Origin: Pristiophorus japonicus | Taxonomy: Eukaryota | Direction: 5' to 3' | Length of the DNA stretch: 64,000 nucleotides | Assembly (NCBI RefSeq): GCF_044704955.1 | Contig: NC_092007.1 | Coordinates: forward strand, 4,960,001 to 5,024,000 | Shown: positions 4,124-49,068 of the stretch, in pieces | Numbering within the stretch: the stretch's first letter is position 1 | Layout: the number at the start of each line of letters is the position of its first letter | Position numbers and translations under genes: made by a program | The notes under the pieces: model-generated | Seen by the model: the letters and a program-made list of their open reading frames with translations, nothing else | What the model was told of the DNA's origin: nothing | Databases searched by the model: none

Positions 4124-4733
4124 GAGGCATAGAATATAAGAGCATGGAAGTTAAGTTCGAACTGTATACAACATTAGTTAGGCCACAGCTCGTATACTGC
4201 GTGCAATTCTGGTCACCACCTTACAGGAAAGATGTGCTTGCACCAGAGAGATTGCAGAGAAGATTACGAAGATGTTGCCTGGACTAGAGAATTTTAGCTA
4301 TGAGGAATCATTGGATAGGGTGGGGTTGATTTCTTCTGAACAGTGTCGGCTGAGATGCGATTTAATTGAGGTGTACAAAATTATGACGGTTCTAAACAGA
4401 ATGGATAGAAAGGACATATTTCCCTCAGCAGAGGGGTCAATAACCAGGGGGCATAGATTTAAAGTAGTTAGTAGCAGGATTAGAGGAGAGATGAGGAAAT
4501 ACATTTTCATCCAGTGGATGACGCGAGTCTGGAAATCACGGTCTGCAAGGGTGGTAGACGCAGAGATACTCATGCTATTTTAAAAGGACTTGGATGTGCA
4601 CCAAAAGAGCCGTAACCTACAGTGCTAAGGTCATAGTGCTGGAAGTTGTATAGCTCTTTTTCAACTGGCATGGACATGATGGGACGAATGGACTTCTTCT
4701 GTGTCATAATATTTTAATGATTCTCTGATTTAT
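4124..4733 (+). mobile_element. CR1-like LINE 3' fragment
   Basis: LVRPQLVYCVQFWSP..MLPGLENFSYEESLDRVGL..RLRCDLIEVYKIM. Confidence 0.85.
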
Positions 4734-5065: not shown

Positions 5066-5071
5066 TTTATT
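5066..5071 (-). terminator. Candidate polyadenylation signal (AATAAA) for copy A
   Basis: TTTATT on + about 265 nt downstream of the stop codon. Confidence 0.4.
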
Positions 5072-5334: not shown

Positions 5335-5502
5335 TCAGTGAAATTTAAGTGCGGCGTATTCAGTGGATTCCTCATTCTTCTGATATCTTTCATGTTTGCG
5401 AACTTTTGACACACTGACAGCTGCGTACACGACCTGATCGCTTTGAGCTGATTGGCTGGGTGGAGCCCCTCTTACACCAATATTTCTGGACTTGTCTTGT
5501 CT
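5335..5502 (-). CDS. Copy A exon 8, terminal cytoplasmic exon with ITIM and ITSM-like motif
   Basis: ttctattacag| acceptor; RQDKSRNIGVRGAPPSQSAQSDQVVYAAVSVSKVRKHERYQKNEESTEYAALKFH*. Confidence 0.88.
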   Translation of the reverse strand, partial: RQDKSRNIGVRGAPPSQSAQSDQVVYAAVSVSKVRKHERYQKNEESTEYAALKFH

Positions 5503-8500
5503 CTGTAATAGAAAGTGGCGCGTTAGATATGGAGGTACTGATCCGGTTGAGAGTGCGTTTCCTGTACCAGAATAACCCGCTTTATTCCATTTCTGCCACC
5601 ATTGTGGTGTTCCTACCTAGCGAGTGAAGTATTTCAACTGCTAATACAATACACATCTTATAGTGACAGAGTAAAGCACTACTGCCCACCGTACTTAATG
5701 GATTACATTTACAATGCATCAGGTAATTGCAGGCAATTATGATTTGTAATAGCAAATGAGTACAACGACATGGCGATCCACTCAGGTGGTGTTTGGAGAA
5801 ATGTTAACCTGGACATGTGGAGACATCTCTGTTCTTCTTCCAAAACTGAATGAGATTCCTAAGAGCCACCTGATTTGCTAGATCAGACAGCCAAGAACTT
5901 GGATAAAGATCCAGTCTGAAAGCACTAGATCCTATAATTCTGTCCTTTCTCAATACTGCACCCCAATCACTCACTAGATGAAGGTACAAAATTTTGCATT
6001 TCCACTCACAATCATCTGTTTCAGATGTGTGCCTCACAATAGCAGCGAAACGAACCCCAGTTTACGGGGGAACATTACACTGAACAAGCCCTTCGGGATA
6101 CTGACTGTATCGGAAGCAACAATGGTTTTACACCCCGCCTAATAATATTCTACATTGAAGTAAGTTCTGCTGGGGTGAAATCCGGCATTCCACACGATCC
6201 CGAGAGTTCCCTGTCCGGCCAATTAATGTTACCTCATCTCTTGGCTCAGATTGAGGCACTTAGTCTCTCCCAAAGGCCAGGCAACAATTTATGTCGCTTT
6301 CGGTTGGGAGTCGGTCGAGATCATGAAATAAGGCTTATTTATTGTAAGACTTAAAATCTCCCCACCCTACTTCCACACAGAAACATAAGAGGTATTACAT
6401 CTTGATAGGAAATAAAGGAAGGTCACTTCTTAATTGGAGGGTGCAAGTCTAGCTGGGTAGAGGAAGAAGGGGTTTTCGAAATACAAATGCTAAAACTTGT
6501 GACACAGTTTAGCAAGGCTGTATACAATATGAAAACAAGAAGTAGGGTTTCTTTCTTGAGGTATTGCATTGAATCGTAAGGCAGTTATGCTGAAATGTAA
6601 CGAACCTTGATCAGCCCAAACTTAGAGTACGATATACAATTCTGGTCGCCGAATTTTAAAAAGGATATAGACGCACTGGAGAGCGCACAGAGAAGATTCA
6701 CAAAGAGGATACCAGAAATGCGAGGTTATACATATCTGGAAAGGATCAACATAAGAACATGAGAACATAAGGAATGCGAGCTGGAATACGTCATTTGGCG
6801 GGTTGAACACATGAAGAGGCAGGGTCCCTTTCGTCTTGAAAAAAGCAGGCTGAGGGGTGACCTAATAGAGGTCTGTACAATTTTGAAAGGCTTTATAGAG
6901 TGGATAGAGAGAGAATGTTTCCACTTGTGGGAAAGACTGGAGGAGGGTCGAGTGGAGCAAAAATGCCATAATGAATCGGTAGGACCGATTGGCCTGTTTC
7001 GGCACCGTATAATTTTTTAATCCTTGTCCAGAAACCTCGCAAGGATCAAAGTTGTCCTGCGATAATGATCGGCATGCAAAATCAAAGGAGGAAAATACAG
7101 ATGATCTTTTGGGCCTTTCATTTCCCTCATATTGATATATCTCGTTGATAATTTATATCCTCGGAACTAATGTCATGGGGGACGTGAGTGTGTGCATTGT
7201 TCTGGTAACTGGGTAATGATACTGGGCCTCGATTGTGTTACGTTGTCTTCGATTTCCAAAGCCATCCCCTACAGTGACAATGTCAACATTTACCAGGACA
7301 TGACCTTTGCATTACATCCAGTTATTGGACTGAGGTGCTCATTCCACACTTGAAAATGCTCTGTGAAACACTTCAATATAGCAAGAGTTGATTCGTCAGA
7401 TTTGCATTTAATATGACTCCCAATGATTGCAAATAGAGCAAGTATCTGGCAGATAACTCAAGCGGATGCTGGGCAATTTCCATATCGTCACTTAACTCAG
7501 TGTCCAACGTGTGCTACACCAGAAACTAACTCACCGTATCGCTGTTGGTTGGGACTACACCAGTGGTATCTCTGGTCTTCTTCCTGATACAAAAAGAATA
7601 CAAATAACGCCCATGTCATAACTGCTTAAAATTGAGTTTAATAAATATTCTGGTGTTCTATATTGAACCATGAACCACACAAGTGGCTAGTGTGGCTATC
7701 ATTTACTTATTACATTGAGAGAATTATGGAACCCTACAATGGTTGCAACAAGGAAGGAGGCCATTCAGCCCGTCGAGCCCGTGCCAGATCTTTAAAAGCG
7801 AATTTCAACTAGTCCCACTCCCCCACTCTGTCCCTGTCCTGCTAGCCCTGCATGTATTTTCCTTCAGGTACTTATCCAACTTCCCTTTGAAAGCCGCAAT
7901 TGAGTCTTCCTCCACATCCCTTTCAGGTAATGCATTCCAGAATATAATCACTCGCTGTGTGAAATCTTTCCCTCATGTCGCATTTGAACCTTTTGACAAA
8001 CAACTTAAATCAGCATCCTCTGGTTCTCGACCCGCCCACCAATGGGAGCAGTTTTCCTTTATCTACTCTTGTCCAACTCCTCGTGATTTTGAACAGCTCT
8101 GTAAAATCTCCTTTCAAATTCTGTAAAGTGGGATTAGGCTAGATAGCTCCTTGTCGGCTGGCGTGGATACAATGTGGCTAAATGGACTCCTTCTGTGCTG
8201 TAAATTTCTATGAATCTATGATTATTTGTTTCTCTTCTCTAAGGAGAACAACCCAACTTCTCCAGTCCTTCCACGTAACTGAAGTCCCGCAATCCTGGAA
8301 CCATTCTTGTAAAATCTTTGCTGCACCGTCTCTAAGGCCTTCACATCCTTCGTAAAGTGCGCTGGCCAGAATTGGACACAATGCTACAGTGGAGGCCGAA
8401 CAAGTGTTTTATAAAGGTTCATCATAACTTCCTTGCTTTTGTATGCTTTGCCTCTATTTATCCGGTGATAGACCGGCACAGGGCAGATTATCCTTCCACA

Positions 8501-11500
8501 ATTCCCTAGTTGCCCCACAGAATCACTTGACCAATTTAATCCTGCCTTTCACAAATCTTATCTGAGCTTCAGAGTCAATGTTTTCACGGTTGATTTATTT
8601 GAAGCAATAGTAGCTCATAGGCAGAAATACTGATGTCACGGAACCTATCAGATCTGCAATTAACACAAGAGTTTAAGTAATTATGAACCACACATACCTC
8701 CGTACCTTCAACGCAATCAGCATCAGCAGGAGAACTGTGACGGCTGCGAGTACTGAGATAGCAATTTTCCAGGGAAATGTTCCTAAAAGTAAAAATTACA
8801 CTGCCGTTCATTATTGCTCGAATAGTACATCATCCTATTAGAATAATTTTATCAGCATGTGTAGGCAAGTTTGATAGAAATTTGCAGCTTAATTGTGAGA
8901 GTCTTACTGTTTCTCTCCTTTCCTAAAACTGTAGGACTCAGCCACACAATCAGATGATGGACTATTTGACAATGAACCCAAATCTAACCCTGCAAATTCT
9001 TATCGTCTTTTATTCATTAATGTGAAATGTTCACTGGACACAGAGCGGGCATCATCTGAACTGATTTCTCCTTCCATAAAAAAGCACAGAATTTATCCTC
9101 ATATTGATCTGTCCCTTGTGTAAATTGTAAATAAATTATTTAAGATTTATTTCCGATAGTTACGTTCCTAAGAGAAAGAAATGCATAGAAACAAACCCCT
9201 GTACACAGCTCAGCCTCGGTCAGACATGTTGAATCATGTCATGCCAATATTTGGTGTTTAATATTATGAGCGGATGAGATAGCGTGGATAGGAAGGACCT
9301 ATTTCCCTTAGCTGAATGGTCAAGAAGCAGGGGGCACAGAATTATAATAATTGGAAGAGGGTTTAGAGAGATGTTGAGAAGCATTTGTTTCATCGAGAGG
9401 GTGGTGGGGGTCTGGAACTCACTGCATGAAATGTTGGTAGAAGCAGAAACCTCACCGCATTTAAAAATACTTGGATCGGCACTTGTAACGATACCGAGAT
9501 CTGGGAATTGCGATTAGGCTGGATGGTTCTTTGTCCACCGGCACAGTCACGATCGGCCGAATAGCCTCCTACTGTGTCCCATTTTTCTATGATTGTAATT
9601 GAGATGTGCTACAAATTATTATCATCGGAAGTTAAGGAACTGGTGACTCCTCTTCATACGATGCACTTTTTGTACTACAAGGGAACCATCCACCTTGAAA
9701 CATGTCATTTAAGTTCTGACTTAACATATGTCTCCAGGTATAACCCAGAGAGTGTATCTATATCCTCACTATACACTCAGACCTGTTCGCTTGCGTTTGG
9801 AAATTTGATGTTATGCTCGAATCTGTTCTTCCAATTATCTCAGATATCGCGACTCTATTTTCACAATGAAACCACATTATTGTTTTCTCAGAGAAAATGC
9901 AGGATACCAATTTCAGTGATAGCATCAACTAATTGCAAGATCTGCACAGTGGAGTTTTATGAACAAGATATAACGGAGCATGTATTAATTGATTGAGAGA
10001 CTGCAGCTGGCTACCATTACAATGTGAGGAAGCAAGACCTCGGAAAGTTTATAATGAATTCAGAAGGTCCCGATTTTTCAAAGAACGCACCTTACCTTTA
10101 CAGTTTAATATTAACCTCTATCTTTCTTTAGAAGCACAGTGCGACAAGAAATGAATGCATACAGTCAGTGATTAAATTTAACATTATTACAACAAAAGTG
10201 AGATGGCAGTCAGTCATGAACCAGACCCTTATGCGACTGAATTTAGCAATGGATTCAGTCCTCAATCATAGATCAGTGAGAGATTATAACGTCAAATGGA
10301 ACTGGATTTTGATGACACTACCTCCACTCGCTTAGTATCTAGCCAGTGATGCAACAAACCAGCGACAGTAATGAAATGGCAGCATATCTCAACACTCACC
10401 TGTTGAATAGAACTGATATTTGCCGACACTAACGCCATGTTCGTTCCCTGCAACACAGGAGAAGTGGTGTCCTGTACCAGTTGGGTTAGTCAGTGTCAGA
10501 GAGCTCTGCACCAGGGAAGTATTCACTGCCTGTGTGGTGACTCCGAGACCTGGCATGTTTCCAGTGATGTTTCTTCCATTGACGCTCCATGTGATGTTTG
10601 CCGGGGGCTTGGCTCTTACACTGCACGTACAATGAAACCCACTCTCAGATGTGGTGCAGGTCGGGCCCCATACCATGGTGGGTTTAACTGAAAAAATAGA
10701 GTGTTCCACTTAAGATCTTTTTAATCATGCAGTTGCATTGTACAAATTGAATCAATTGGCGCTATTTGGAGAAGCATAGGAGTGAATGCAAGGCCGGCAT
10801 TAACAACAATAATAATAACTTGCATTTCAACTTGCATTCCACTCTCCAGTTCTGACGAAAGGTCATCGCTCTGAAACGTTAACTCTGCCTTCTCTGCAAA
10901 GATGCTACCTGACCTGCTGAGATTTCCAGCTTTTCTGATTTTATTCCAGATTGTAGCATCCGCAGTATTTTGCTTTATAAATTTACAATTATATAGCGCC
11001 GCTAACGTCGCAAAAACTCCCAATGAGCTTCAGAAGTTTACAGAAGACTACATCGGATGTATGGCACAAAAACGGTACATTTGGATCCAACACTCCATGC
11101 CTGAGTTAATGTTCCACTCGAGCCGCCTCCCGTCTTTCCTCACCTAAAGCTATCAGCATAACGCTCTATTCCCTTAACCTTCATACGCTTTTTCAACATC
11201 ACTTTACATGCATCTGTTCCATCAGCTTCAACCACTCGCTGTAAAGAAGTTCCTTCTGAATTCCCTATTGCATATATCTTTTTGTCTACCCTATAAAAAC
11301 CTTTCGTCATTTTAAAGATGTCAATTAGATCACTCCTCAGCCTTCTATTTTCAAGTGAAAAAAGACCCCAAAGAGCGTTAGCAAACAACATTTGATACGG
11401 ATCATTCCTGTACCGTTACAAATTTAATTGGCTCACATCACACTTACATTGTACAGAAATCTGTGTGGATCTGTTGGCGGTGCTCAGGTTATTTTCAGCC

Positions 11501-14500
11501 ACGCAATAATACTCGCCGTCATCTTCAGAACTAATGTTGTGAAATGTGTGCTTCAGTTCACCGGTGGATGATCTGCTGATCTCAGTGACAACTCGGACCA
11601 ATGTTAAATTGACGGGCTGGTCACCCAGAGCCCTGCAGTACAATAATAATGAAGTACCCTCCACTATTACGATAGAAGAATTGAAGCTTGGTTTCTCCAG
11701 TGCATCTGAAACACACGAGAGCATTGATGTTATTGGAGAATATCGGAGCAGAAGAGTAAAATCAAGTTGGCAATTGAAGAATAATATTAAAGCCGATATG
11801 GTGGCTATATTGCCAAATCTAAATTTAAAAAGCCAGCCTATGATTGTTGGCGCTATACTGCTTAAGATTATTTCAAATTTAGACCAAATTTATCTCAACG
11901 TTTTATCCTCTTCACTTCAAACGTTTGTAGTGACTGCCTGGACGTGATTCTTTTCCACAAATACATCAATCAAGCGGCCATTCCTCCAACAACAATAACA
12001 GTGGCCTTTCCCATCACTTGAACAGAGCTGTTGAGGCGGATTGCAGGCTCCCGACCACCACCGCTGATAACTCGTCACATACACTTATGTTTCAGATGCT
12101 CTCTCGGTGCAACTATATCAGGAATTAGGAGCCTTTGGAATAACATTTGACATAAGTAGCATCTATGGAGCCTTCCAATGTTACTCCCTGGGTCTTTGTC
12201 AATGTGAAATAATACAACTCACAAGAAATGTTTGATAGTCAGTTCGACCCAATGGTTATAGGAATATATCTTACACTTCGAGTACGTTCCGCTATTCAAT
12301 TAGATCATGGCTCATCCATATGGTAGCTCTGCCTACCCGCCTTTGCTTTATCCTTATTTTTAAAAACTATCCATCACATATGTTGTATATTTAATTATCT
12401 AGGCGAGCTATCACTCCACTGAGCATCAAGACAAGTTTGGATCTTGTTTATCAAAGGATGGTGCAATGCAGGGTACAGCAGATACTTACTTTGAATGTGC
12501 AGTGTGAGAGTTTCTTGAACACTCCCCACGAAACCATCAACGACAAGCTGACATCCCAGCGTTTTCCCATTGTGGTCTGGTGATGGGGTGAAGATGAATG
12601 TTGTTGAAACAGCCCATGATCCCTCCAACCTGTTGTCTCTGTATTTGGAATTTTTAGTCTCTTGCAGCAAACGAACATTATCCTCGTCCTGAATCCACGT
12701 CAGTTCTGGATTGGCGGAGGGGCAGCTGGAGGTGACTGAGCAGGTTAAATGTACGGGCTTTCCAGCAATCAATTCCCCAGGGACTGAAATCCATGACTCA
12801 TCTGTAAGCAGTGAAAGGAATTCGTGTGACTGTGGATTTCAATATAACACATGTGGAGGGAAGGGCCAGGCGGTTCAGTTCAATGTCTGAGATAATACCA
12901 TGAGCAAAAATTTATATGTTTTCCACTTGATCTCTGCTATGGGAAGGAGCCGATTGTTAATTATTACTTACAGTCACAGAATCAATCGATTGATACATGT
13001 GTTCATGAACTTAATGTCCTGCCACAATATGAATGAATTATTCATGTGAGCTTGTTTCTGATCGGTCAGTCACCGCTCTGCAGCACACAATTATTTCAAT
13101 TCAAATTGAGGTCAGAAAAAACAGTCAAAACAGAGTCCCAGATTTGGTTCCTTGAGTGTACCTGCGATATTCTTAGTCCAACGGCTCACTCTCACGTGGA
13201 ACAGTTGATTTAGCCATTGCTTATTTTTATTCTTGCTTTAAATTCATTTTCTCTCATTTAGTCTCGCGATAGGAGTGCCACAACTAACCTTCAGGACGAG
13301 GGACACGCTTAACTAACCTGGATTGTTACTGTTACCAACAGCGGGACAGTGCACAGCTATGAGAAGAAAGCAAGACCAGGTTGCGGGTTCAACACCCATT
13401 TAGGGACTTAAGCACAACCTGTAGCCTGACACTCCAGTGCAGTACTGATGCATTGTCACAATGCCGGAGATTCCATTTTACGGATGAGATATGAACCTGT
13501 TCTCCTAATTTACCTCTCAAGTGTACATAACAGTTCGCGCAGTATTATTTTGAATGGGCCTTTGTCCTCGTTAACTTTGATTGATTGACGCGTTATCTGC
13601 AAGGCTGGTGGATGTTTTAAAAGACATATACAGATGTCCTTCAGCCGTGGTGGGCCGAAGGGCCTCTTAATGTAATGTAAGATTAAATATTTCTATGATT
13701 GTATTTTATAACACACACCTGGATATTATTCAGTGTACCAGCCCTGCAGAGATGGCGTGTGACGTGGGCCAATGTCAACATGAAATCTTTCATTTTAGGC
13801 AAAAAATTGAATGGCATTGGCGAGATGGAACATTAACTACAAAAGCAAAAATTCAAAATAACTTACTTAAAATAGAAATATTGACAGGAGTTTTGGAACC
13901 GTATCCTTCTATCTGATCCTGGGAGTTCATGATCTTCAATATGAAGTAATATTCTCCTCCATCGCTCTCCCTGATGTCCTTTAACCGTAAGGAGCATTGC
14001 TTCTTTATAAAGTCGCCGGCTAACTCTGCCCTCCCTCGATAGTCATGGTGCATATTGTCTGCATCTCTGGAATCATAGATAACCGAGACCCCTGGTGCAT
14101 AAAGATGAGGACTCCCCTTTAACCACATACCCTGTGGATTGCGACCATTCGTGGGATAGTCAAATCTACACGGGATCTTTGCACATGAACCCTTCACCGC
14201 CGATAAACTCCATGGTGTCGTCACAGACCATCGTGAACTACGTACAACTGGTGAAGAAATAGAAATTAAACATCCATTGAAATCCCCAATATGAATACTT
14301 TCCCTCATCGTCAGGTTAAATACTATTACTTTAACCTTTGACGCCCACGAAAACATATTAATGAGTACCTCAATGAAAAGGCGTTAACTTTTAATTAAAA
14401 CTCCTCCAATTCCATTAACTACTCCATTGAAAGTCGGCAAATCAGAAAGTAAATATTAAATCAATATGATAAATACATAAAGAAGTTCTGAATAAAACAT

Positions 14501-14665
14501 ATTAAAAGTGCAATTCACAAATTACTAGTTAAGCATGTACTATATCTATAAAGTAAGAACGTTTTAATTGAACACAAAATGGAAATCGTTTCGAACATCA
14601 ATTAGTAAACTGAACATTTTACCTTTACAGAATATCAGAATGGAGATAAATGTTAAACTCTTCAT
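5335..14665 (-). CDS. Copy A: Siglec/MAG-like Ig-superfamily receptor, inhibitory type (SP-V-C2-C2-C2-TM-ITIM/ITSM-like), 8 coding exons, 527 aa
   Basis: Exons (minus strand): 14623-14665, 13867-14247, 12490-12801, 11448-11705, 10400-10687, 8698-8782, 7535-7583, 5335-5502. All introns are GT-AG with compatible phases (1,1,1,1,1,2,0). Total 1584 nt = 527 aa + stop. Siglec-type cysteine pattern (CAKIPC...QCSL in V; LTCSVTSSCP in D2). Confidence 0.88.
6560..7020 (+). mobile_element. Composite CR1-like fragments
   Basis: LEKSRLRGDLIEVCTILKG remnant. Confidence 0.7.
7535..7583 (-). CDS. Copy A exon 7, juxtamembrane cytoplasmic (KKTRDTTGVVPTNSDT)
   Basis: ttctttttgtatcag| acceptor, ACG|GTGAGT donor; phase 2->0 bridges the TM and terminal exons exactly. 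Confidence 0.75.
7720..8460 (-). mobile_element. CR1-like LINE fragment with a nested + strand CR1 3' tail (~8125-8222)
   Basis: Reverse-complement CR1 ORF2 end interrupted by gtgggattaggct...ctatgaatctatg. Confidence 0.75.
8698..8782 (-). CDS. Copy A exon 6, transmembrane, uncharged core (GTFPWKIAISVLAAVTVLLLMLIALKVRR)
   Basis: tttttacttttag| acceptor, AG|GTATGT donor, phase 1->2; homologous to the TM exons of B-E (WKIA.S). Confidence 0.88.
9255..9595 (+). mobile_element. CR1-like LINE 3' fragment
   Basis: DRKDLFPLAEWSRSRGH..RVVGVWNSL. Confidence 0.8.
10400..10687 (-). CDS. Copy A exon 5, membrane-proximal Ig domain (MAG domain-5-like)
   Basis: ttttttcag| acceptor, G|GTGAGT donor; PTC..GFHCTCSVRAKPPANITW...SSLTL...SCVAGNEHG. 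Confidence 0.92.
10845..10980 (+). mobile_element. Penelope-like element terminal remnant with degenerate hammerhead motif (also ~24425, ~37975, ~51527)
   Basis: CTGACGAAAGG..CTGAAACGTTAACT followed by gatgct.cctgacctgctgag.tttccagc. Confidence 0.55.
11040..11365 (-). mobile_element. CR1-like fragment (one per unit)
   Basis: LFSLENRRLRSDLIDIFKMTKGF. Confidence 0.8.
11448..11705 (-). CDS. Copy A exon 4, Ig domain 3 (C2/I-set)
   Basis: gtgtttcag| acceptor, |GTAAGT donor; EGTSLLLYCRALG...NISSEDDGEYYCVAEN. Confidence 0.92.
12490..12801 (-). CDS. Copy A exon 3, Ig domain 2
   Basis: cttacag| acceptor, |GTAAGT donor; LTCSVTSSCPSANPELTW...FTPSPDHNGKTLGC. Confidence 0.92.
13375..13560 (+). mobile_element. 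Deu-domain SINE (SacSINE1/AmnSINE-like) fragment (one per unit)
   Basis: gggttcaa..gacttaagcaca..ctgacactccagtgcagtactga..cggatgagat; recognised from recall only. Confidence 0.6.
13867..14247 (-). CDS. Copy A exon 2, Siglec-type V-set Ig domain
   Basis: ttcttcaccag| acceptor, |GTAAGT donor; WSVTTP..GSCAKIPCRFDYP..W..YRGRAELAGD..CSLRLKDIRESDGGEYYF. Confidence 0.93.
14623..14665 (-). CDS. Copy A exon 1, signal peptide MKSLTFISILIFCK(V)
   Basis: ccacccATG context, hydrophobic core, AAAG|GTAAAA donor, phase 1 matches the V exon. Confidence 0.8.
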
Positions 14666-15049: not shown

Positions 15050-16590
15050 CAGAATAAATGTTCGGACACTGAAATATGTAGAGGAACAAAGTGGCCTTGG
15101 AGTGCAAGTCCACCGATCCCTGAAGGTAGCAGGACAGGTAGATAAGCTGCTCAAGAAGGCATACGGAATACTAGCATTTATTAGTCAAGGTGCAGAATAC
15201 AAGAACAAAGAGGTTATTCTTGAACTGTATAAAACACTAATTGGACCACTGCTAGAGTACTGTGTGCAGTTCTGGTCTTCACTTTACAGGAAAGATGTGA
15301 TGCACCAGAGAGGGTATGTTGCCTTTAATGGAGAATCTTATATTTGAGGAACGGTACTGTAGGCTGGTGTAGTATTCTTTGAAATAGATGAGGCTGAAGG
15401 AAGATTAAATTGAGCTGTATTACATTATGAGAGGCCTGGATAGAGTGGATAAGAAGGACCTACTTCCTTTAGCAGAGGGGTCAATAACGATGGGGCATAG
15501 ATTAAAAGTAATTGGTAGGAGGTGTAGTGGGCATTTGAGGAGAATTATTTTCAGCCAGAGGGTGATGGGGGACTGGAATCACTGCCTCAAAGCATGGTAG
15601 AGACAGAAACCCTCAGCATCTAAAAATTACGTGGATGTGCACTTGAAGTGCTGTAACCTACAGGGATATGGAGCGAGAGCTGGAAATGGGATTAGGCTGG
15701 CATCGCTGAAATTAACGGACTTATATCCAGGTTGCTGCAATGAAACTTTTCTGATGATTCTAATTACAGTGCTGGAACTGTGAGTTGTGATTCAGCTTTT
15801 AGATTCGAGGGTCTATGTAGCTGGAAGCAATGTGGAAATTTGTCTACAGGAATATATCCCTTCACCTTCTATGTTACAAGAAGGACATAGATGAACTGGA
15901 GAAGGTGCAAATCAGATTTTCAAAAAGTAGACCAGAAATGGGAGAATATAAACAGCAGGAAAGTCTGAACGGTCTGGCAAGCTTTCCTCTAGAAAAGAGA
16001 AGGTGGAGGGGTGACATAATAGAGGCCTGTAAAATGATGAAGGGGTTTGATAGGATAGATGAAGCAGAGATTTTCCACTTGTGCGGGGATCAAAACCAGA
16101 GTTCATCGATATGAGATAGTCATTCAGAAATAACAGAAGGAATTCAGGAGAACCTTATTTACCCAGAGAATGGTGAGAATGTGGAAGTTGCTACCACACG
16201 GAGGGATTGAGGCGAATAGTATAGATGTGTTTAAGAGGCAGCTAGATAGCTACATGAGGGAGAAAGGAATATGCTGCTGGATGAAATAAACTTGGGAGGA
16301 GAAAGCTCCGGTGGAGCATAAACGTTGCCTTGGACAAGTTGGGCCCAATTGCATGTTTCTTTGCTGCACATTTGATGTAATTAACCCTGAATTAATTACA
16401 TCAAGTTTGCTGAGTCTCTCACTATATTCAAGGATGCGATAGATAGATATTTGTAGTTTAGAGAATGAAGAGCTATGTGGAGAGGGCGGGAATTTGCTAA
16501 GGTCGATGATCAGCTATGACCTCATTGAATGGCGGAGCAGGCTTGAGGGGCCATGTTGGCTACTCCTGCTACTATTTCTTATGTACTTTT
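15050..16590 (+). mobile_element. Cluster of CR1-like 3' fragments (one cluster per unit)
   Basis: LGVQVHRSLKVAGQVDK..AYGILAFI..PLLEYCVQFWS; LEKRRWRGDIIEACKMMKGFDR. Confidence 0.85.
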
Positions 16591-19804: not shown

Positions 19805-20380
19805 GCAATCATAGAAAGGTTACAGCACAGAAGACTATTTGACCCGTCGAACCCATGCCGACTCTCAGCTCGAACCACTCCTGCTCCCTTTTCCCGTGGT
19901 CCTGCATTTTTTCCCTTCAGATATAATCTACCTCAGTTTTGAACGGTAAGATTGATTCTGCTGGCACCGCCCTTCCAGGCAATGCATTCCAGATCCCAAC
20001 CACGCGCCGCATAAAAAGCATTTATCTTACATCACAATTTGCTTCTTTTGCCAATCACCTTAAATCTGTGTTTCTGGTTCTCGACCCTTCTGCCAATGGG
20101 AACAGTTTATCTCAATCTACTCTGTACAGTCCCATCATGATTTTGAACTCCTCTATCAAATCTGCTCTCAATACTATCAGTTCCAAAGATAACAACCCCC
20201 CAGGTTCTCCAGTCTCTCCTCGTAACTGAAGTCCCACATTCTCGGAATCTTTCTCGTAAATCTTTACTGCACCTTCTCTGAAGCAGATGTATCTGTACCC
20301 AGTTGGGGCCGAACCAGTGTTTTATACAGGTTAATCATAACTTCCGCACTTTTGTACTCCCTACCACTATTTATGAGGCC
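19805..20380 (-). mobile_element. CR1-like fragment (one per unit)
   Basis: Reverse complement of the CR1 3' end seen at 20860-21440. Confidence 0.8.
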
Positions 20381-20859
20381 AACTGGCCTTACCTAATTTA
20401 ATTTGCAATTTTCTGCACAGATTGATAATGAGCGGAATCTAATACAGACAGCAATACTTCAGAAACCACGCAGATGCATTGTTTCTTAAACACATGTTCC
20501 TAAATAGTACACGGCTTTTAAATGACCCTATTGAAAACACAATAGTTTGTACAATATCTGTGTATTGTAAAGGTAACTGATTAGAATTGACACTGAGCTG
20601 TGAAGGTTTATTATACTGTGTTGACAGATGCTGCCAAATTAATCCAATTAACTATGGAGAAGTTCCTCATTGACCGCCAGAGTTGTCTAAGACGTTAACA
20701 GAGGGAGGTGTGCAATGCAAACAATCTTAACATTACTGGGGAAGATTGCTACTTTATTAAAGCACATCAACACTGTTTAAAAGTGACTGGAACCATTCAA
20801 GCCAACGGCATTTCAGGCATCTGTTTGGAGTGAAAACAAGTGTGGGATTGTAAATTTCA

Positions 20860-21440
20860 CAAACGCAAGGATGTTATGCCAACCCTTTATAAAATATCGG
20901 ATTGGCCTCAACTGGAGAATTCAGTCCAATTCTGGGCATCGCACATGAGGAAGGACGTGAAGGCCTGAGAGAGGGTGCAGAAAATATATACGAGAATAGT
21001 CCCAATGACGAGGGACTTCAGTTACGTGGAGAGACTGGAGAAGCTGGGGTTGTTCTCCTTAGAGCAGAGACGTTGGAGAGGAGATTTGACAGTGGTGTTC
21101 AGAATCAAAAGTAGATAGAGAGAAATTGTTCCCATTGGAGGAAAGGTCAAGAACCAGAGGACACAGATTTAAGATGATTGCCAGAAGAACCAATGGCGAT
21201 ATGAGGAAAAAATATTACGCAGCGAGTGGTTAGGAGCTGGAATGCACTGCCTGGACGGGTGGTGGAGGCAGATTCAATCGTGGCTTTCAAAAGAGAATTG
21301 GATATGTACCTGAAGGAGAATAAATGCAAGGCTACAGGTAAAGGGCGGGGCAGTGGGATTGGCTGAAATGCTCTTGCAGAGATCCGGCACGGATTGGAAG
21401 GGGGCCAATGACCTCCTTTTTTGCTGTAACGATTTTAGAA
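20860..21440 (+). mobile_element. CR1-like 3' fragment (one per unit)
   Basis: ttacgtggagagactggagaagctggggttgttctccttagagcagag..tggaatgcactgcctg. Confidence 0.85.
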
Positions 21441-21549
21441 TTTTATTTTGTTTAAAAAAAACACAGTAAACAGAACTGAAAATATTAGCGATTAATCTGC
21501 GAAATTTGCTCATTTTCACAGAAATTGCAGGCATATGAACTTTAAAATC

Positions 21550-21712
21550 ATTTAACTTTGCAGCATATTAACTGTAATCTTCATTCTTGAGATACCTTTC
21601 ATATTTGTGAAAGTTTCAAACTTCCAGCGATTGGCGCCGGAAACTCGACACTTTGCGCCAATTGGATGGATGCTGTCCATCTGCTAGCAATGTTTCTCTC
21701 CTGGTCTTGGCT
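21550..21712 (-). pseudogene. Decayed homologue of the ITIM/ITSM terminal exon downstream of copy B TM
   Basis: SQDQERNI..AQS aligns with RQDKSRNI..AQS of copy A. The ITIM Tyr is lost and there is a frameshift; the shifted frame reads HKYERYLKNEDYS*YAA versus RKHERYQKNEESTEYAA. Confidence 0.85.
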
Positions 21713-21959: not shown

Positions 21960-24900
21960 TCAGCTCTGACTGGTGGGAAATAACGTAATAAAAAAGTACT
22001 GGGTCAATTCAGCAATAAATACATCTGCAAATGTCTTCTCCTACCTCTATGACGAACAAAACGAGTTTCAATTGATAACAATGTCGATGAGGTACATCAC
22101 CTAACAGAGCAACTAAGATTTGCCCGCAATGATATTAGCCCCAGGAGCGGATTCTACCCGTTCCAGTCCAGCAATTCTTGCTCATATGCTGAAATTCTGA
22201 CGACACGTTATTTTGAAATCTCTCTTTATTACCCCACGAGTTGAAGTAATTATTCCCATACCCGTGTAAGTCCATTTCTTTCATCACCAAGACAATGATG
22301 GCAATCAGAATGAGAACGGCAACAGCGTTTCTGATTGACATGGCGATTTTCCAAAATGATCCTGAAAATATTCAACAACAAAAAACACGCTCTTCATTAT
22401 TGCTCTGATTAACCCAGGTTTCTCGATAGCATTTAACAACATGTATGGGACTATTAAGATAGAAATCAACTCACATTTATTTAGTGCTTTTCCCAACCTC
22501 GCAACCCACTTTACAGCCAATGAAGTACGATGGAAGTTTATTCACTGTTGCACTGCAGGTAACGTGGCAGCTGTATTGCGCATAGAATGCTCCCACAAAC
22601 AGCGATGAGATAAATAAGCAGATAATCTCTTTCAGTATTACTGGTTGAGGGATAAATAATTGCCAAGGCATCGGAAAGCGCTGCACCTGCTCGTCTTCAA
22701 TCGATTCAGTATTACAGCATCCCTTAGAAAATGCAGCTATCCACATCGCATACTCGAATCTGCTCCTCCGTTATCCGATATCTTAATTCAGTCCATAAGT
22801 TGTGTTTAAAGTTAATCTGCGCCAATTGTCAGTATTTTGACACGTGATAGTTTGCTCAGAATATCAATAAAACTGACATTCGGCTAAAAAAACTGCGTGA
22901 AAATAAATTGAACTGAGCATTTGTAAATTGAATGATGGACTGTGCCCCACTAATGTTACAGTGAGCGCAAATATGGTTTCATAGAGTGTGTCACTAATTC
23001 AGAAAGTTCTGTTTTTTATAAACGATGACACATTCCTTCTAGTGTTTTATATTACACTTTCTATCTTCGTTAAAAAAGGCGACAATAATCAAATTCAGAA
23101 GACCAGAATATAAACTTGACGGGGATTATTCTCATCTGAATTTCGCGAGCAGCATGAACCAGAGCCAAACACTACTAAAATTAAGAATGGTATACGTCCT
23201 AAATTGCAAATAATCAGAGAAAAATACAACATTACTGCATAGGAGGAGGACATTCGGCCCATCATGTTCCTGCCGGCCAATTTAGCATTATCCAGCCTAA
23301 TTCCATTTTCAAGCTCATCGTCATATCCAACTAAATGCTATGGGAGAGTGTGCCTCTAAAGTCTTTCTGGCGGTGATTTGCAGAGCACGACCATCCTCTG
23401 GTGAAAGCATATCATCTCAAATCCCCTCTAATCCTTCTACAAATTACTTGAAATAAGTATGGTATTACGGACTCAGTGGAATTATTGCCTTCTCAGGGAT
23501 ACTCTGAAATAGCTGCAAGCCCTCCGTAGTTAAGCTGTGTGGCCAAGTTAAATCTGAGCATCGATCAAGTGATTGAGAGCCTGCAGCTCACTACCATTAC
23601 AATGAAAGGAAACCAGACGTCATAAAGTCTCCGATCAATTCAGAAGGTCTCGCTTGTTTAACGATCATACGCTACCTTTACTGTTTAATGTTAACCCCTT
23701 CCTCTCATCACAAGCACAGTGCGACCATAACTTAATTCAGAAAATCAGTGATTAAATTTTACATTTTTCCAACAATTTTAAGATAGCAGACAGTCACTAA
23801 CCAGACAATTACTCTACTGAAATTAGCAATGGATTCAGTCCTCAATCATAGATCAGTAAGTTAATACAAGCTCAAATGGAACTGATATTTGCTGACACTA
23901 ATTCTGTTCACTTAGTATCGGGCCAATGATGGAATAAACCAGCTATTTTAATCAAATTGCAGCAAATCTCAACACTCACCTGTTGAACAGATCTGATATT
24001 TGCCGACACTAACACCGTGTTCGTTCCATGCAACACAGGAGATATGGTGTCCTGTACCGGTTGGGTGGGTCAGTGTCAGATAGCTCTGCACCAGGGAATT
24101 ATTCATTGACCGGGTGGTGACTCCGAGACCTGGCATGTTTCTAGTGATGTTTCTTCCATTGACGCTCCAGGTGATGTTTGCCGGGGGCTTGGCTCTTACA
24201 CTGCAGGTACAATGAAACCCACTCTCAAATCTGGTGCAGGTCGGGCCCCATACTATGGTGGGTTTAACTGAAAAAATAGACAGTTCCACTTAAGATGATT
24301 TTAATCATGCAGTTGCATTGTTTAAGTTAAACCAATTGGCGCTATTTGGAGAAGCACAGGAGTGAACACAAAGCCCGGCATTACCAATAAAAAAACTTGC
24401 ATTTCAACTTGCATTCCAATCTCCAGTTCTGATGAAAGGTCCGCGGCCCGAATCGTTAACTCTGCCTTCTTTGCACAGATGCTGCCTGACCTGCTGAGTT
24501 TTGCAGCATTTTCAGATTTTATTCCAGATTCTAGCATCCGCAGTTTTTTGCTTTTTTTAATTTGCATTAATATAGCGCCGCTAACGTGGCAAAAATTCCC
24601 AATGAGCTTCAAAAGTTCACAGAAGACTACATCGGAAGTTTGGCACAGAAACGGTACAGTTGGCTCAACCACTCCATGCCTGAGTTAATGCTCCACTCGA
24701 GCATCCTCCCGTCTTTCCTCATCTAAAGCTATCAGCATAACGCTCTATTCCCTTCTCCCTCATACGCTTTTTCAACATCACTTTACATGCATCTGTTCAA
24801 TCAGCTTCAACCACTCGCTGTAAAGAAGTTCCTTCTGAATTCCCTCTGGGATATATCTTTTTGTCTACCCTATAAAAACCTTTCGTCATTTTAAAGATGT

Positions 24901-27900
24901 CAATTAGATCACTCCTCAGCCTTCTATTTTCAAGTGAAAAAAGACCCCAAAGAGCGTTAGCAAACAACATTTGATACGGATCATTCCTGTACCGTTACAA
25001 ATTTAATTGGCTCACATCACACTTACATTGTACAGAAATCTGTGTGGATCTGTTGGCGGTGCTCAGGTTATTTTCAGCCACGCAATAATACTCGCCGTCA
25101 TCTTCAGAACTAATGTTGTGAAATGTGTGCTTCAGTTCACCGGTGGATGATCTGCTGATCTCAGTGACAACTCGGACCAATGTTAAATTGACGGGCTGGT
25201 CACCCAGAGCCCTGCAGTACAATAATAATGAAGTGCCCTCCACTATTACGATAGAAGAATTGAAGCTTGGTTTCTCCAGTGCATCTGAAACACACGAGAG
25301 CATTGGTGTTATTGGAGAATATCGGAGCAGAAGAGTAAAGTCAATTTGGCAATTGAAGAATAATATTAAAGCCGATATGGTGGCTATATTGCCAAATCTA
25401 AATTTAAAAAGCCAGCCTATGATTGTTGGCGCTGTACTGCTTAAGATTATTTCAAATTTAGACCAAATTTATCTCAACGTTTTATCCTCTTCACTTCAAA
25501 CGTTTGTAGTGACTGCCTGGACGTGATTCTTTTCCACAGAAACATCAATCAAGCGGCCATTCCTCCAACAACAAGAACAGTGGCCTTTCTCATCACTTGA
25601 ACAGAGCTGTTGAGGCGGATTGCAGGCTCCCGACCACCACCGCTGATAACTCGTCACATACACTTATGTTTCAGATGCTCTCTCGGTGCAACTATATCAG
25701 GAATTAGGAGCCTTTGGAATAACATTTGACATAAGTAGCATCTATGGAGCCTTCCAATGTTACTCCCTGGGTCTTTGTCAATGTGAAATAATACAACTCA
25801 CAAGAAATGTTTGATAGTCAGTTCGACCCAATGGTTATAGGAATATATCTTACACTTCGAGTACGTTCCGCTATTCAATTAGATCATGGCTCATCCATAT
25901 GGTAGCTCTGCCTACCCGCTTTTGCTTTATTCTTATTTTTAAAAACTATCCATCACATATGTTGTATATTTAATTATCTCGGCGAGCTATCACTCCACTG
26001 AGCATCAAGACAAGTTTGGATCCTGTTTATCAAAGGATGATGCAATGCAGGGTACAGCAGATACTTACTTTGAATGTGCAGTGTGAGAGTTTCTTGAACA
26101 CTCCCCTCGACACCATCAACGACAAGCTGACATCCCAGCTTTTTCCCATTGTGGTCTGGTGATGGGGTGAAGATGAATGTTGTTGAAATAGCCCATGATC
26201 CCTCCAACCTGTTGTCTCTGTATTTGGAATTTTTAGTCTCTTGCAGCAAACGAACATTATCCTCGTCCTGAATCCACGTCAGTTTTGGATTGGCGGAGGG
26301 GCAGCTGGAGGTGACTGAGCAGGTTAAATATACGGGCTTTCCAGCAATCAATTCCCCAGGGACTGAAATCCATGACTTATGTGTAAGCAGTGAAAGGAAT
26401 TCGTGTGACTGTGGATTTCAATATAACACATGTGGAGGGAAGGGCCAGGCGGTTCAGTTCAATGTCTGAGATAATACCATGAGCAAAAATTTATATGTTT
26501 TCCACTTGATCTCTGCTATGGGAAGGAGCCGATTGTTAATTATTACTTACGGTCACAGAATCAATCGATTGATGCATGTGTTCATGAACTTAATGTCCTG
26601 CCACAATATGAATGAATTATTCATGTGGGCTTGTTTCTGATCGGTCAGTCACCGCTCTGCAGCACACAATTATTTCAATTCAAATTAAGGTCAGAAAAAA
26701 CATTCAAAACAGAGTCCGAGATTTGGTTCCTTGAGTATACCTGGGATATTCTTAGTCCAACGGCTCACTCTCACGTGGAACAGTTGATTTAGCCATTGCT
26801 TATTTTTATTCTTGCTTTTAATTCATTTTCTCTCATTTAGTCTCGCGATAGGAGTGCCACAACTAACCTTCAGGACGAGGGACACGCTTAACAAACCTGG
26901 TTTGTTACTGTTACCAACAGCGGGACAGTGCACAGCTATGAGAAGAAAGCAAGACCAGGTTGCGGGTTCAAGACCCATTTCAGAGACTTAAGCACAACCT
27001 GTAGCCTGACACTCCAGTGCAGTACTGATGCATTGTCACAATGCCGGAGATTCCATTTTACGGATGAGATATTAACCTGTTCTCCTAATTTACCTCTCAA
27101 GTGTACATAACAGTTCGCACAGTATTATTTTGAATGAGCCTTTGTCCTCGTTAACTTTGATTGATCGACGCGTTATCTGCAAGGCTGGTGGATGTTTTAA
27201 AAGACAAATACAGATGTCCTTCAGCCGTGGTGGGCCGAAGGGCCTCTTAATGTAATGTAAGATTAAATATTTCTATGATTGTATTTTATAACACACACCT
27301 GGATATTATTCAGTGTACCAGCCCTGCAGAGATGGCGTGTGACGTGGGCCAATGTCAACATGAAATCTTTCATTTTAGGCAAAAATTGAATGGCATTGGC
27401 GAGATGGAACATTAACTACAAAACGAAAAATTCAAAATAACTTACTTAAAATAGAAAGATTGACAGGAGTTTTGGAACCGTATCCTTCTATCTGATCCTG
27501 GGAGTTCATGATCTTCAATATGAAGTAATATTCTCCTCCATCGCTCTCCCTGATGTCCTTTAACCGTAAGGAGCATTGCTTCTTTATAAAGTCGCCGGCT
27601 AACTCTGCCCTCCCTCGATAGTCATGGTGCATATTGTCTGCATCTCTGGAATCATAGATAACCGAGACCCCTGGTGCATAAAGATGAGGACTCCCCTTTA
27701 ACCACATACCCTGTGGATTGCGACCATTCGTGGGATAGTCAAATCTACACGGGATCTTTGCACATGAACCCTTCACCGTCGATAAACTCCATGGTGTCGT
27801 CACAGACCATCGTGAACTACGTACAACTGGTGAAGAAATAGAAATTAAACATCCATTGAAATCCCCAATATGAATACTTTCCCTCATCGTCAGGTTAAAT

Positions 27901-28244
27901 AATATTACTTTAACCTTTGACGCCCACGAAAACATATTAATGAGTACCTCAATGAAAAGGCGTTAAATTTTAATTAAAACTCCTCCAATTCCATTAACTA
28001 CTCCATTGAAAGCCGGCAAATCAGAAAGTAAATATTAAATCAATATGATAAATACATAAAGAAGTTCTGAATAAAACATATTAAAAGTGCAAATCACAAA
28101 TTACTAGTTAAGCATGTACTATCTCTATAAAGTAAGAACGTTTTAATTGAACACAAAATGGAAATCGTTTCGAACATCAATTAGTAAACTGAACATTTTA
28201 CCTTTACAGAATATCAGAATGGAGATAAATGTTAAACTCTTCAT
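21960..28244 (-). CDS. Copy B: Siglec-like receptor, activating type (TM Arg, short tail); D2 acceptor mutated
   Basis: Exons: 28202-28244 (SP), 27446-27826 (V), 26069-26380 (D2, acceptor AG->AC), 25027-25284 (D3), 23980-24267 (D4), 22262-22361 (TM: GSFWKIAMSIRNAVAVLILIAIIVLVMKEMDLHG). Probable last coding bit 21960-21969 (GQS*). The 3' end is uncertain. Confidence 0.75.
22262..22361 (-). CDS. Copy B transmembrane exon with Arg
   Basis: atattttcag| acceptor, GG|GTATGG donor, phase 1->2 as in copy A. Confidence 0.85.
22470..22730 (-). mobile_element. Deu-domain SINE 3' part (one per unit)
   Basis: cactttacagccaatgaagtac..cccacaaacagc..ggttgagggataaat; recognised from recall only. Confidence 0.6.
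23980..24267 (-). CDS. Copy B membrane-proximal Ig exon
   Basis: GT-AG intact; 14 aa differences from copy A. Confidence 0.9.
25027..25284 (-). CDS. Copy B Ig domain 3 exon
   Basis: Protein identical to copy A; GT-AG intact. Confidence 0.9.
26069..26380 (-). CDS. Copy B Ig domain 2 exon (canonical acceptor lost)
   Basis: Open frame; acceptor reads cttacac instead of cttacag. Confidence 0.75.
27446..27826 (-). CDS. Copy B V-set exon
   Basis: Same splice sites as copy A; 2 aa differences. Confidence 0.9.
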
Positions 28245-34200: not shown

Positions 34201-35109
34201 TAATCCAATTAACTGTGGAGAAGTTCCTCATTGACCGCCAGAGTTGTCTAAGACGTTAACAGAGGGAGGTGTGTAATGCAAACAATCTTAACATTACTGG
34301 GGAAGATTGCTACTTTATTAAAGCACATCAACACTGTTTAAAAGTGACTGGAACCATTCAAGCCAACGGCATTTCAGGCATCTGTTTGGAGTGAAAACAA
34401 GTGTGGGATTGTAAATTTCACAAACGCAAGGATGTTATGCCAACCCTTTATAAAATATCGGATTGGCCTCAACTGGAGAATTCAGTCCAATTCTGGGCAT
34501 CGCACATTAGGAAGGACGTGAAGGCCTGAGAGAGGGTGCAGAAAATATCTACGAGAATAGTCCCAATGACGAGGGACTTCAGTTACGTGGAGAGACTGGA
34601 GAAGCTGGGGTTGTTCTCCTTAGAGCAGAGACGTTGGAGAGGAGATTTGACAGTGGTGTTCAGAATCAAAAGTAGATAGAGAGAAAGTGTTCCCATTGGA
34701 GGAAGGGTCAAGAACCAGAGGACACAGATTTAAGATGATTGCCAGAAGAACCAATGGCGATATGAGAAAAAAATATTACGCAGCGAGTGGTTAGGAGCTG
34801 GAATGCACTGCCTGGACGGGTGGTGGAGGCAGATTCAATCGTGGCTTTCAAAAGAGAATTGGATATGTACCTGAAGGAGAATAAATGCAAGGCTACAGGT
34901 AAAGGGCGGGGCAGTGGGATTGGTTGAAATGCTCTTGCAGAGATCCGGCACGGACTAGAAGGGGGCCAATGACCTCCTTTTTTGCTGTAACGATTTTAGA
35001 ATTTTATTTTGTTTAAAAAAAACACAGTAAACAGAACTGAAAATATTAGCGATTAATCTGCGAAATATGCTCATTTTCACAGAAATTGCAGGCATATGAA
35101 CTTTAAAAT

Positions 35110-35273
35110 CATTTAAATTTGCAGCATATTAACTGTAATCTTCATTCTTGAGATACCTTTCATATTTGTGAAAGTTTCAAACTTCCAGCGATTGCCGCCG
35201 GAACCTCTACACTTTGCGCCGATTGGATGGATGCTGTCCATCTGCTAGCAATGTTTCTCTCCTGGTCTTGGCT
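35110..35273 (-). pseudogene. Decayed ITIM-exon relic, copy C
   Basis: Same lesions as 21550-21712. Confidence 0.8.
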
Positions 35274-35520
35274 CTGTAACAGAAAGCAGTGCGTTAGAAA
35301 AGGGTGTGAGGCCACTTTCTGTCCCAGAATAACCCTCTTTCTCGCTGCCCAGATCATTTTCAATCTTTCCCTACTCAATGATGGAAACATTCTGAGCGTT
35401 GCAACATGCAGGACCAATGAAAAGACGAACACGAAAATAACAGATGCCCCATCGAGCCAATCCCAAACAGTCAGGACGCAACAATGCCTCAGGATTGCAA
35501 CTCTCCCTCTCGGCACCATG

Positions 35521-48657: not shown

Positions 48658-48821
48658 CATTTAAATTTGCAGCATATTAACTGTAATCTTCATTCTTGAG
48701 ATACCTTTCATATTTGTGAAAGTTTCAAACTTCCAGCGATTGCCGCCGGAACCTCTACACTTTGCGCCGATTGGATGGATGCTGTCCATCTGCTAGCAAT
48801 GTTTCTCTCCTGGTCTTGGCT
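48658..48821 (-). pseudogene. Decayed ITIM-exon relic, copy D
   Basis: Same lesions as 21550-21712. Confidence 0.8.
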
Positions 48822-49068
48822 CTGTAACAGAAAGCAGTGCGTTAGAAAAGGGTGTGAGGCCACTTTCTGTCCCAGAATAACCCTCTTTCTCGCTGCCCAG
48901 ATCATTTTCAATCTTTCCCTACTCAATGATGGAAACATTCTGAGCGTTGCAACATGCAGGACCAATGAAAAGACGAACACGAAAATAACAGATGCCCCAT
49001 CGAGCCAATCCCAAACAGTCAGGACGCAACAATGCCTCAGGATTGCAACTCTCCCTCTCGGCACCATG

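Follow-up and report, generated by a model that had tools for sequence, protein, structure and literature searches.

A candidate cluster of paired Siglec-type receptor genes in the shark Pristiophorus japonicus

Gene A and its inhibitory-type tail

The stretch of DNA analysed here, called the window throughout, comprises 64,000 nucleotides of the genome of the shark Pristiophorus japonicus (RefSeq assembly GCF_044704955.1, contig NC_092007.1, positions 4,960,001 to 5,024,000) and contains a cluster of immunoglobulin (Ig)-domain receptor genes of the Siglec type. Positions are counted from the first base of the window and all genes lie on the minus (-) strand. One gene, A, is predicted to end in a tail with an ITIM (immunoreceptor tyrosine-based inhibitory motif), and repeated copies with near-identical ectodomains have a membrane anchor that contains an arginine, their ITIM exon being destroyed. 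These features suggest a cluster of paired inhibitory and activating receptors. No other gene was recognised in the window.

When its exons are joined, gene A has an open frame of 527 amino acids with the order leader-V-C2-C2-C2-anchor-tail and AG/GT ends at all seven introns. The leader exon (14623-14665) reads MKSLTFISILIFCK, has the donor AAG/GTAAAA (slash at the exon end) and resembles the N-terminus of Heptranchias protein P0160. Other leader candidates were dropped on donor quality and on this likeness, which was a judgement call, the chosen exon being fourth by crude score. The V-set domain (13867-14247) has Siglec-type cysteines and Ile117 at the position of the essential arginine, D2 (C2-set, 12490-12801) has the extra Cys168, D3 (11448-11705) was placed by Pfam scan and exon model, and D4 (10400-10687) contains four cysteines. 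The usual C-strand Trp of D3 is replaced by Leu (VNLTL), a change also present in Mustelus P0009. The uncharged transmembrane exon (8698-8782, phase 1 to 2) is followed by the cytoplasmic exon c1 (7535-7583, phase 2 to 0, donor ACG/GTGAGT) and by the terminal coding exon c2 (5335-5502, phase 0 to stop), with a candidate polyadenylation signal AATAAA at 5066-5071. With nine relatives as queries, tblastn gave no convincing sign of additional Ig exons or tail exons in the stretch from D4 to the stop of A, nor did it find an Ig exon beyond the four in 1-24400.

A preliminary description of this DNA had assigned three exons to the tail, and their reading stands: with AG/GT ends and phases 1-2, 2-0 and 0-stop, the frame runs without a stop through GTFPW...KVR-RKKTRD...DQVVYAAV...STEYAALKFH to the terminal stop. 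The ITIM VVYAAV is encoded at 5416-5433 (residues 496-501, Tyr498) and the distal motif TEYAAL at 5347-5364 (residues 519-524, Tyr521). The bare motif pair is weak evidence for a tail: it occurred once in the 46,980 six-frame codons of 1-23492, and at least one match arose in 32 of 200 base shuffles. The tail was accepted as real because of its homology to shark proteins, in which the same tail is present. Exon c2 matched Heptranchias P0173 at 34 of 55 residues, ungapped and stop-free (tblastn E 4e-17), and c1 at 10 of 16. An inhibitory-type tail in a single intact copy within the window, as had been described, is thus supported at the sequence level; taken alone, an ITIM tail is ordinary.

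The 39 bases behind the donor of c1 (7496-7534) appear to be the decayed 3' part of a longer ancestral c1. They read VS(stop)FLV(stop)HTLDTE and then GAG/TTAAGT, a former c1 donor that has lost its G, and TAG stands at the tyrosine position of what would have been the first ITIM. This block aligned without gaps to VTYAAVQHPFNTE of P0159, and adding it raised the alignment score by 33-47 points for six of seven relatives' tails. Five of six inhibitory-type tblastn queries ran through it, including both stops. Most inhibitory relatives have three tyrosine motifs and gene A keeps two, as does Chiloscyllium P0006. The donor in use, ACG/GTGAGT, agrees with eight of nine consensus positions, is the sole GT donor scoring >=6 in 7380-7583 and keeps phase 0. 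Both stops fall within the 13 skipped codons and none within the 71 kept (Fisher p 0.022, in a small, post hoc test). The simplest reading is that A shortened c1 at a newer donor and retained motifs two and three. VVYAAV, previously called the membrane-proximal motif, would then be second in the ancestral order.

A tandem array of arginine-anchor genes

Self-blastn and unit alignment identified a tandem array of ~13.55-kb units (9913-64000, with starts at 9913, 23493, 37052 and 50600) that runs past the right end of the window. The tail exons of A lie outside the repeated unit, the array beginning at 9913, as the preliminary description had stated. They are not unique DNA, however, as each 13.55-kb unit has a paralogous transmembrane exon and a relic of c2. 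The ectodomain of gene B (23980-28244) consists of a leader (28202-28244), V (27446-27826), D2 (26069-26380, acceptor AC), D3 (25027-25284) and D4 (23980-24267). Gene C (leader to D4, 37539-41792) likewise has AC at the D2 acceptor, together with a D3 donor GTCAGT and a 12-nt in-frame deletion in D4. All splice sites of gene D (leader to D4, 51081-55346) are AG/GT and its frame is open. A fifth gene, E, is represented by its 3' exons, and its ectodomain would fall past 64000. Skipping of D2 in B and C keeps the frame and would yield V-D3-D4; P0049 and P0060 also have no D2, and a D2-less form may be viable.

An arginine-containing transmembrane exon was found in all four units, ~1.6 kb behind D4, reading SFWKIAMSIR(N/T)A.AVLILIAIIVLVMKE. 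These exons lie at 22262-22361 (B), 35823-35922 (C), 49371-49470 (D) and 62941-63040 (E). That of B reads SFWKIAMSIRNAVAVLILIAIIVLVMKEMDLH, has its Arg codon at 22330-22332 and was matched by Cetorhinus P0042 and Mustelus P0057 (tblastn E 2e-4). In all four units the anchor exon is open with AG/GT ends and the adjacent ITIM exon is wrecked. The relics of this exon, 550 bases past each anchor exon, lie at 21559-21712 (B), 35120-35273 (C), 48668-48821 (D) and 62239-62392 (E). In the relics another residue stands in place of the first tyrosine, the frame is shifted, and TAA immediately precedes the codon of the second tyrosine; the B relic has kept its acceptor and is followed by AATAAA at 21442-21447. 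In blastn, c2 was 66.7-67.9 % identical over 153 nt to the relics in C, D and E (E 2.5e-9 to 1.3e-6) and 77 % identical over 53 nt to that in B; a separate alignment of c2 to the relic gave 68 % over 190 nt.

The introns of the repeated gene could also be aligned with those of A. Both sides of the anchor and the region upstream of the relic scored above the best of 100 shuffles (65.5 vs 33, 48 vs 36.5 and 55.5 vs 38). No relic of c1 was found in the repeated unit, the score of 21.5 being below the best of 100 shuffles (38.5). From the flanking intron alignments, the anchor and the relic, the repeated gene therefore appears to be a diverged whole-gene duplicate of A from which c1 and both motifs are gone and whose anchor contains an arginine. 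Predicted joining of the phase-2 anchor donor to the relic acceptor enters another frame and gives a short tail with no tyrosines in all four copies, after which AATAAA follows. Tails that are short and ITIM-free were likewise predicted for the remaining five acceptor candidates and for read-through in B. Secreted forms of B-D by read-through after D4 (...STGEC and stop) were considered and set aside when these genes were found to have their own anchor exons; they may occur as minor isoforms.

Two kinds of minor repeat were observed. In B, C and D, 27 bases from the 3' end of D4 recur ~80 bases into the next intron (23875-23901, 37434-37460 and 50982-51008; 93 % identical), with no such match reported for A. 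Dispersed repeats of 68-80 % identity occur in both orientations at 846-1491, 4131-4644, 7734-8461, 9255-9485, 15194-16213 and 19875-21438. Their translations look like the ends of CR1/L2 long interspersed nuclear elements (LINEs); the pieces tested had no Pfam match. Tandem Repeats Finder detected no tandem repeats in 1-24000.

Similarity among the copies

Identity between A and B, C and D rises along the unit, from 75 % in the intron behind D4 (9913-10312) to 86-90 % in D4 and the upstream intron (10313-11109) and 96-100 % above 11110. Residues 1-331 of A were identical to B at 322 and to D at 324 positions (97-98 %), and the 96 residues of D4 at 82 and 80 positions, respectively. D4 of A was 92 % identical to D4 of B and D, compared with 98-99.6 % for V, D2 and D3. 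Units B (23493-37051) and C (37052-50599) were 99.83 % identical, with 100 % in most 400-base windows, and this may reflect a duplication of very recent date, copy-number variation or an artefact of the assembly. Sites spread along the unit grouped A with D against B and C in 88 cases, with eight and two for the other two patterns; B adjoins A, yet is not its closest relative. None of the six copy comparisons had a significant excess of either kind of change, positive selection included. Differences in D2 were almost all amino-acid changing (codons 7:0, 5:0 and 10:1); V, D2 and D3 pooled were not significant.

Relationship to Siglecs and myelin-associated glycoprotein

The ectodomain of A matched the Pfam families V-set and Ig_CD22, and the top PDB sequence matches of its V domain were myelin-associated glycoprotein (MAG) and sialoadhesin (E about 2e-14; 1.5e-14 for MAG), with Siglec-8, -7, -10, -5 and CD33 at E 1e-8 to 3e-6. 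An AlphaFold model of this domain had a predicted local distance difference test (pLDDT) value of 93, and Foldseek ranks 1-11 were sialoadhesin and MAG structures, with a template modelling (TM) score of about 0.85. D2 matched MAG (E 1.5e-11), then CD22, CD33 and Siglec-5 (4e-4 to 7e-3); D4 alone gave generic Ig matches and a weak match to MAG residues 401-479 (E 0.006). The family profile gave the same order, with MAG at E 7.8e-70 for a 500-residue chain and 2e-39 for a 317-residue chain, followed by Siglec-8 (2e-34), Siglec-5 (5e-26) and CD33 (3e-23). Gene A is therefore more similar to MAG than to Siglec-5, -8, -10 or CD33, in a comparison across differing chain lengths and rates. The unusual cysteines of Siglecs are a pair early in V, a third in strand E and an additional one in D2. 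Cys36, 41 and 99 (V) and Cys162, 168 and 225 (D2) of A align with cysteines of MAG. By sequence and modelled fold, the ectodomain belongs to the Siglec family.

Arg97 of sialoadhesin is the V-domain arginine essential for sialic acid binding (PMC13358205). It aligns with Ile117 (YYFILK vs YNFRFE) in the V domains of A, B, C and D, all four of four. Because this key arginine is absent, the receptors of the window probably do not bind sialic acid. Across the shark family the position was Arg in 8 of 24 parsed V domains, including that of the closest relative, P0173, and another residue in 16. Mustelus P0009 has a natural Arg there. These came from 26 V domains examined, of which two were unparsed (one shows Arg); two out-group proteins were not counted.

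A tree of V plus D2 (30 rows from 29 of 33 proteins; P0173, P0072, P0137 and P0208 were removed by the length filter, and mammalian CD33-related sequences were not among the rows) placed the family in an elasmobranch group of its own (support 96/95, midpoint root), separate from ostrich MAG, from Pristis P0020 and from the Siglec-like proteins of teleosts. P0127 (Pseudorasbora XP_067307726.1), named MAG in its source, grouped with the teleost Siglec-like proteins and not with ostrich MAG, and was not used as a MAG reference. MAG has five Ig domains. The four Ig domains of A, the Ile in place of Arg and the separate group in the V plus D2 tree all speak against orthology to MAG.

The preliminary description had called the tail a hallmark of inhibitory CD33-related Siglecs. 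The order of an ITIM and a distal ITIM-like motif stands, and the wider assignment was overstated: MAG is the best match, the essential arginine is absent, and the motif pair is not exclusive, similar pairs being present in other families of inhibitory receptors, for example SIRP-alpha. In fish, MAG and CD22 have ITIMs as well (PMC7226832). Gene A thus appears to be Siglec-derived, with a tail like that of an inhibitory CD33-related Siglec and without the arginine. Membership of the CD33-related group is not demonstrated, because the closest solved relative is MAG and the Arg is absent.

Relatives in other sharks and rays

Relatives were found by HMMER search; a word-index search with the V exon gave none among 51 longer-protein candidates. 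The closest relatives of A were all from sharks and rays, the best V and tail matches being from Heptranchias. They bear automatic names such as 'MAG-like' and 'Siglec-5/8/13/14-like', which are pipeline labels, and come from Heptranchias, Heterodontus, Mustelus, Scyliorhinus, Carcharodon, Cetorhinus, Chiloscyllium, Stegostoma and rays. Identity to A was 44-46 % over nearly the whole length for P0007, P0009, P0035 and P0156, 57 % for the partial P0159 and 61 % for the V domain of P0173.

A regular-expression search of all proteins in the collection used detected Arg-type anchors in two, Mustelus P0057 and Cetorhinus P0042, with the Arg aligned to that of the window copies. By eye, S. torazame P0163, a fused model, has an Arg anchor one position earlier, upstream of an uncharged anchor. 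This protein (XP_072326203.1, 'hemicentin-1-like') seems to be a fusion in which the end of a gene with an Arg anchor is followed by a stretch resembling a LINE and then by a further gene whose anchor is uncharged. The two genes, with near-identical D3 domains, are probably a second pair from another subfamily. Mustelus P0057 and the three-motif P0009 have consecutive accessions, their contigs are equal in length, and they are probably neighbours. The D4-anchor region of P0042 as query returned six proteins, all known, and no further Arg-type member.

Trees were reconstructed from 30 V domains, 39 D4 domains and 24 anchor segments (seven Arg rows). The V-domain tree grouped sequences by lineage and not by type, with the window genes A-D (100/100), the Mustelus pair (100/99) and the Cetorhinus Arg-type protein with a Carcharodon inhibitory one (100/99) each together. 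Charged and uncharged members were likewise grouped by lineage in the D4 tree. In the anchor tree, the seven Arg rows, which were cut 2-6 residues longer, fell on one side (96/99). A single old origin of the Arg type is favoured by these segments.

Discussion

Paired receptors have similar ectodomains and consist of an ITIM-bearing member and a short-tailed member whose Arg or Lys anchor binds an adaptor with an ITAM (immunoreceptor tyrosine-based activation motif) (PMC3533184, PMC13358205; also PMC6288428). The window has clustered, near-identical ectodomains, an ITIM-bearing member and an Arg-anchor member without an ITIM, the exon that follows the anchor being a predicted one. Because the repeated copies have their own Arg anchor and a destroyed ITIM exon, the window is read here as a shark paired-receptor cluster with inhibitory A and activating Arg-anchor copies, probably with a ligand other than sialic acid. 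The probability of this reading is put at about 0.7.

Under the paired-receptor reading, an old duplication of the whole inhibitory gene would have given rise to the Arg-type gene, with loss of c1 and both motifs. Recent gene conversion or unequal crossing-over may then have held the region from leader to D3 at 97-100 % identity between A and the copies, and have amplified the Arg-type gene. A would likely be spliced at the donor after 7535, keeping two of three ancestral motifs. Clustering by ligand would lead to phosphorylation of Tyr498 and Tyr521 of A and recruitment of SHP-1/SHP-2, and the anchor arginine of the copies would be matched by an acidic residue in an adaptor of the FcR-gamma, CD3-zeta or DAP12 type. 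By analogy with Siglec-5/14 and Siglec-11/16, the likeliest purpose would be to counter microbes that engage the inhibitory receptor.

Several observations weigh against this reading. All exon junctions were drawn from the DNA sequence alone. The D2 acceptor is AC in B (26381-26382) and C (39929-39930), D4 of gene C has lost ITWS, four residues that include the conserved Trp, and gene D is the only intact one of three complete Arg-type copies. No purifying selection was detected in the recent changes of V-D3 (pN 0.010-0.016 vs pS 0.005-0.014, no test significant). The arginine, lying close to the anchor's outer end, might do no more than snorkel, and the loss of an ITIM in A itself could signal decay. 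The anchor tree is short, its support was 88/96 after removal of the Arg column, the extension and two duplicate rows, and grouping of anchors by species was not rejected (approximately unbiased test, p-AU 0.26 for the window copies and 0.098 for the Mustelus pair). In a 2014 genome survey, the FcεRI-gamma chain was not found in sharks (PMC4016189).

Some of these observations would also fit an account, judged unlikely, in which A is a working inhibitory receptor and the tandem copies are pseudogenes or non-signalling decoys whose arginine has no adaptor role: the broken D2 acceptor in two of three complete copies, the D4 deletion in C, the lack of a synonymous excess in V-D3 and the survey result for FcεRI-gamma (PMC4016189). 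However, gene D is intact, four of four units have an open anchor exon with AG/GT ends beside a wrecked ITIM exon, and in Mustelus and Cetorhinus the arginine occupies the same column. A working pair system may commonly have null alleles of its activating Siglecs (PMC6288428, PMC5701461). It is improbable that the tail of A is itself decaying, with read-through past 7535 to the first TAG (...NSDTVS and stop) yielding no tyrosine motif and c2 being a recent leftover. The extension of ancestral c1 to 7496, with most queries and tails aligning through both stops, is as this would predict, but the strong donor, the only good one in 7380-7583, keeps phase 0, and both stops lie in skipped codons. 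Furthermore, c2 retains both motifs, whereas the truly released paralogues lost both, and the two-motif tail of Chiloscyllium P0006 is an existing one in the family.

A cassette arrangement, in which the repeated ectodomains would all be spliced to one common tail at 5335-8782, has a precedent in the clustered protocadherins and would account for there being one intact cytoplasmic module, with all D4 donors in phase 1 as the anchor of A requires. It is made most improbable by the anchor exon that each unit has for itself ~1.6 kb behind D4, where the acceptor is intact and AATAAA lies further on. There is also little likelihood that A is a true Siglec that binds sialic acid and is an orthologue of MAG or of the CD33-related Siglecs of mammals, although the Siglec fold and cysteines, the Arg in eight of 24 parsed shark-family V domains (that of P0173, the closest, included) and the reported binding of glycolipids by some Siglecs without the canonical Arg (PMC10122656) agree with it. 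The Ile at the Arg97 position in four of four V domains argues against this reading. So do the four Ig domains, against five in MAG, and the separate elasmobranch group in the midpoint-rooted tree (96/95).

Paired Siglecs were described from primates. Like them, the genes of the window combine a Siglec-type V plus C2 ectodomain with an ITIM and ITIM-like motif in the inhibitory member and with a basic-anchor, ITIM-less partner, of which broken forms occur. Gene conversion maintains the likeness within Siglec-5/14 and -11/16, which have been read as counter-traps against microbes and in which null alleles of the activating partner are frequent; the essential arginine is missing from Siglec-5 of great apes and from human Siglec-XII (PMC6288428, PMC5701461). 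The N-terminal exons of SIGLEC11/16 are homogenised to 97-99 % (PMC5701461), as compared with 96-100 % in the window. In contrast to the paired Siglecs, the window has a single inhibitory gene with at least four Arg-type units arranged head to tail, its near-identity spans the whole leader-to-D3 region plus intergenic DNA, and all copies are without the essential Arg; the likeness is one of design and not of demonstrated orthology. MAG (Siglec-4) is the best solved match for V, D2 and the family profile, and fish MAG has an ITIM (PMC7226832). The window genes differ from it in having four Ig domains and no essential Arg, in being multigene and paired, and in standing apart from ostrich MAG. 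The shark relatives share the family, the tail motifs and, in P0042, P0057 and P0163, the Arg-type anchor, but most inhibitory ones have three tyrosine motifs where A has two.

An Arg anchor with a short tail is also the activating signature of LILRA/LILRB, DCAR/DCIR and other FcR-gamma-coupled pairs (PMC3533184). Activating and inhibitory multigene families are already known in cartilaginous fish from the MDIRs of skate (PMC3031540), and CEACAMs of Xenopus show the same paired pattern outside mammals (PMC5112662). The ectodomains of LILRA/LILRB, DCAR/DCIR and MDIRs are unrelated to those of the window (LILR C2-type, C-type lectin, and CD300/TREM-like V, respectively), a distinction made by description and not by sequence. 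A 2020 teleost paper states that fish genomes lack inhibitory CD33-related Siglecs (PMC7226832), and the whale-shark genome paper makes a single general mention of Siglecs (PMC8455134). No description of the shark family or its pairing was found in the literature searched, which was mostly outside subscription journals, and reviews of Siglec evolution may list shark genes. The cluster around the tail of A is a new variation on the known paired-receptor design.

A broader proposal is more doubtful. The shark and mammalian CD33-related clusters might derive from one locus, so that paired Siglec-type receptors would be as old as jawed vertebrates. The Arg lineage might have arisen once, before the shark orders split, and been kept matched by conversion, with a c1 deletion throwing the ITIM exon out of frame, and the sialic-acid Arg might have been lost repeatedly, so that protein ligands of pathogens are read.

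If the paired-receptor reading is true, cartilaginous fish, as a much more remote branch, would have the same paired design, whether by common ancestry or through parallel evolution. In this locus the steps would still be readable, from duplication of a whole gene, loss of c1 and wrecking of the ITIM exon to expansion by unequal crossing-over and loss of an ITIM via a new donor. Gene D would provide a concrete bait for the ITAM adaptor of shark leukocytes.

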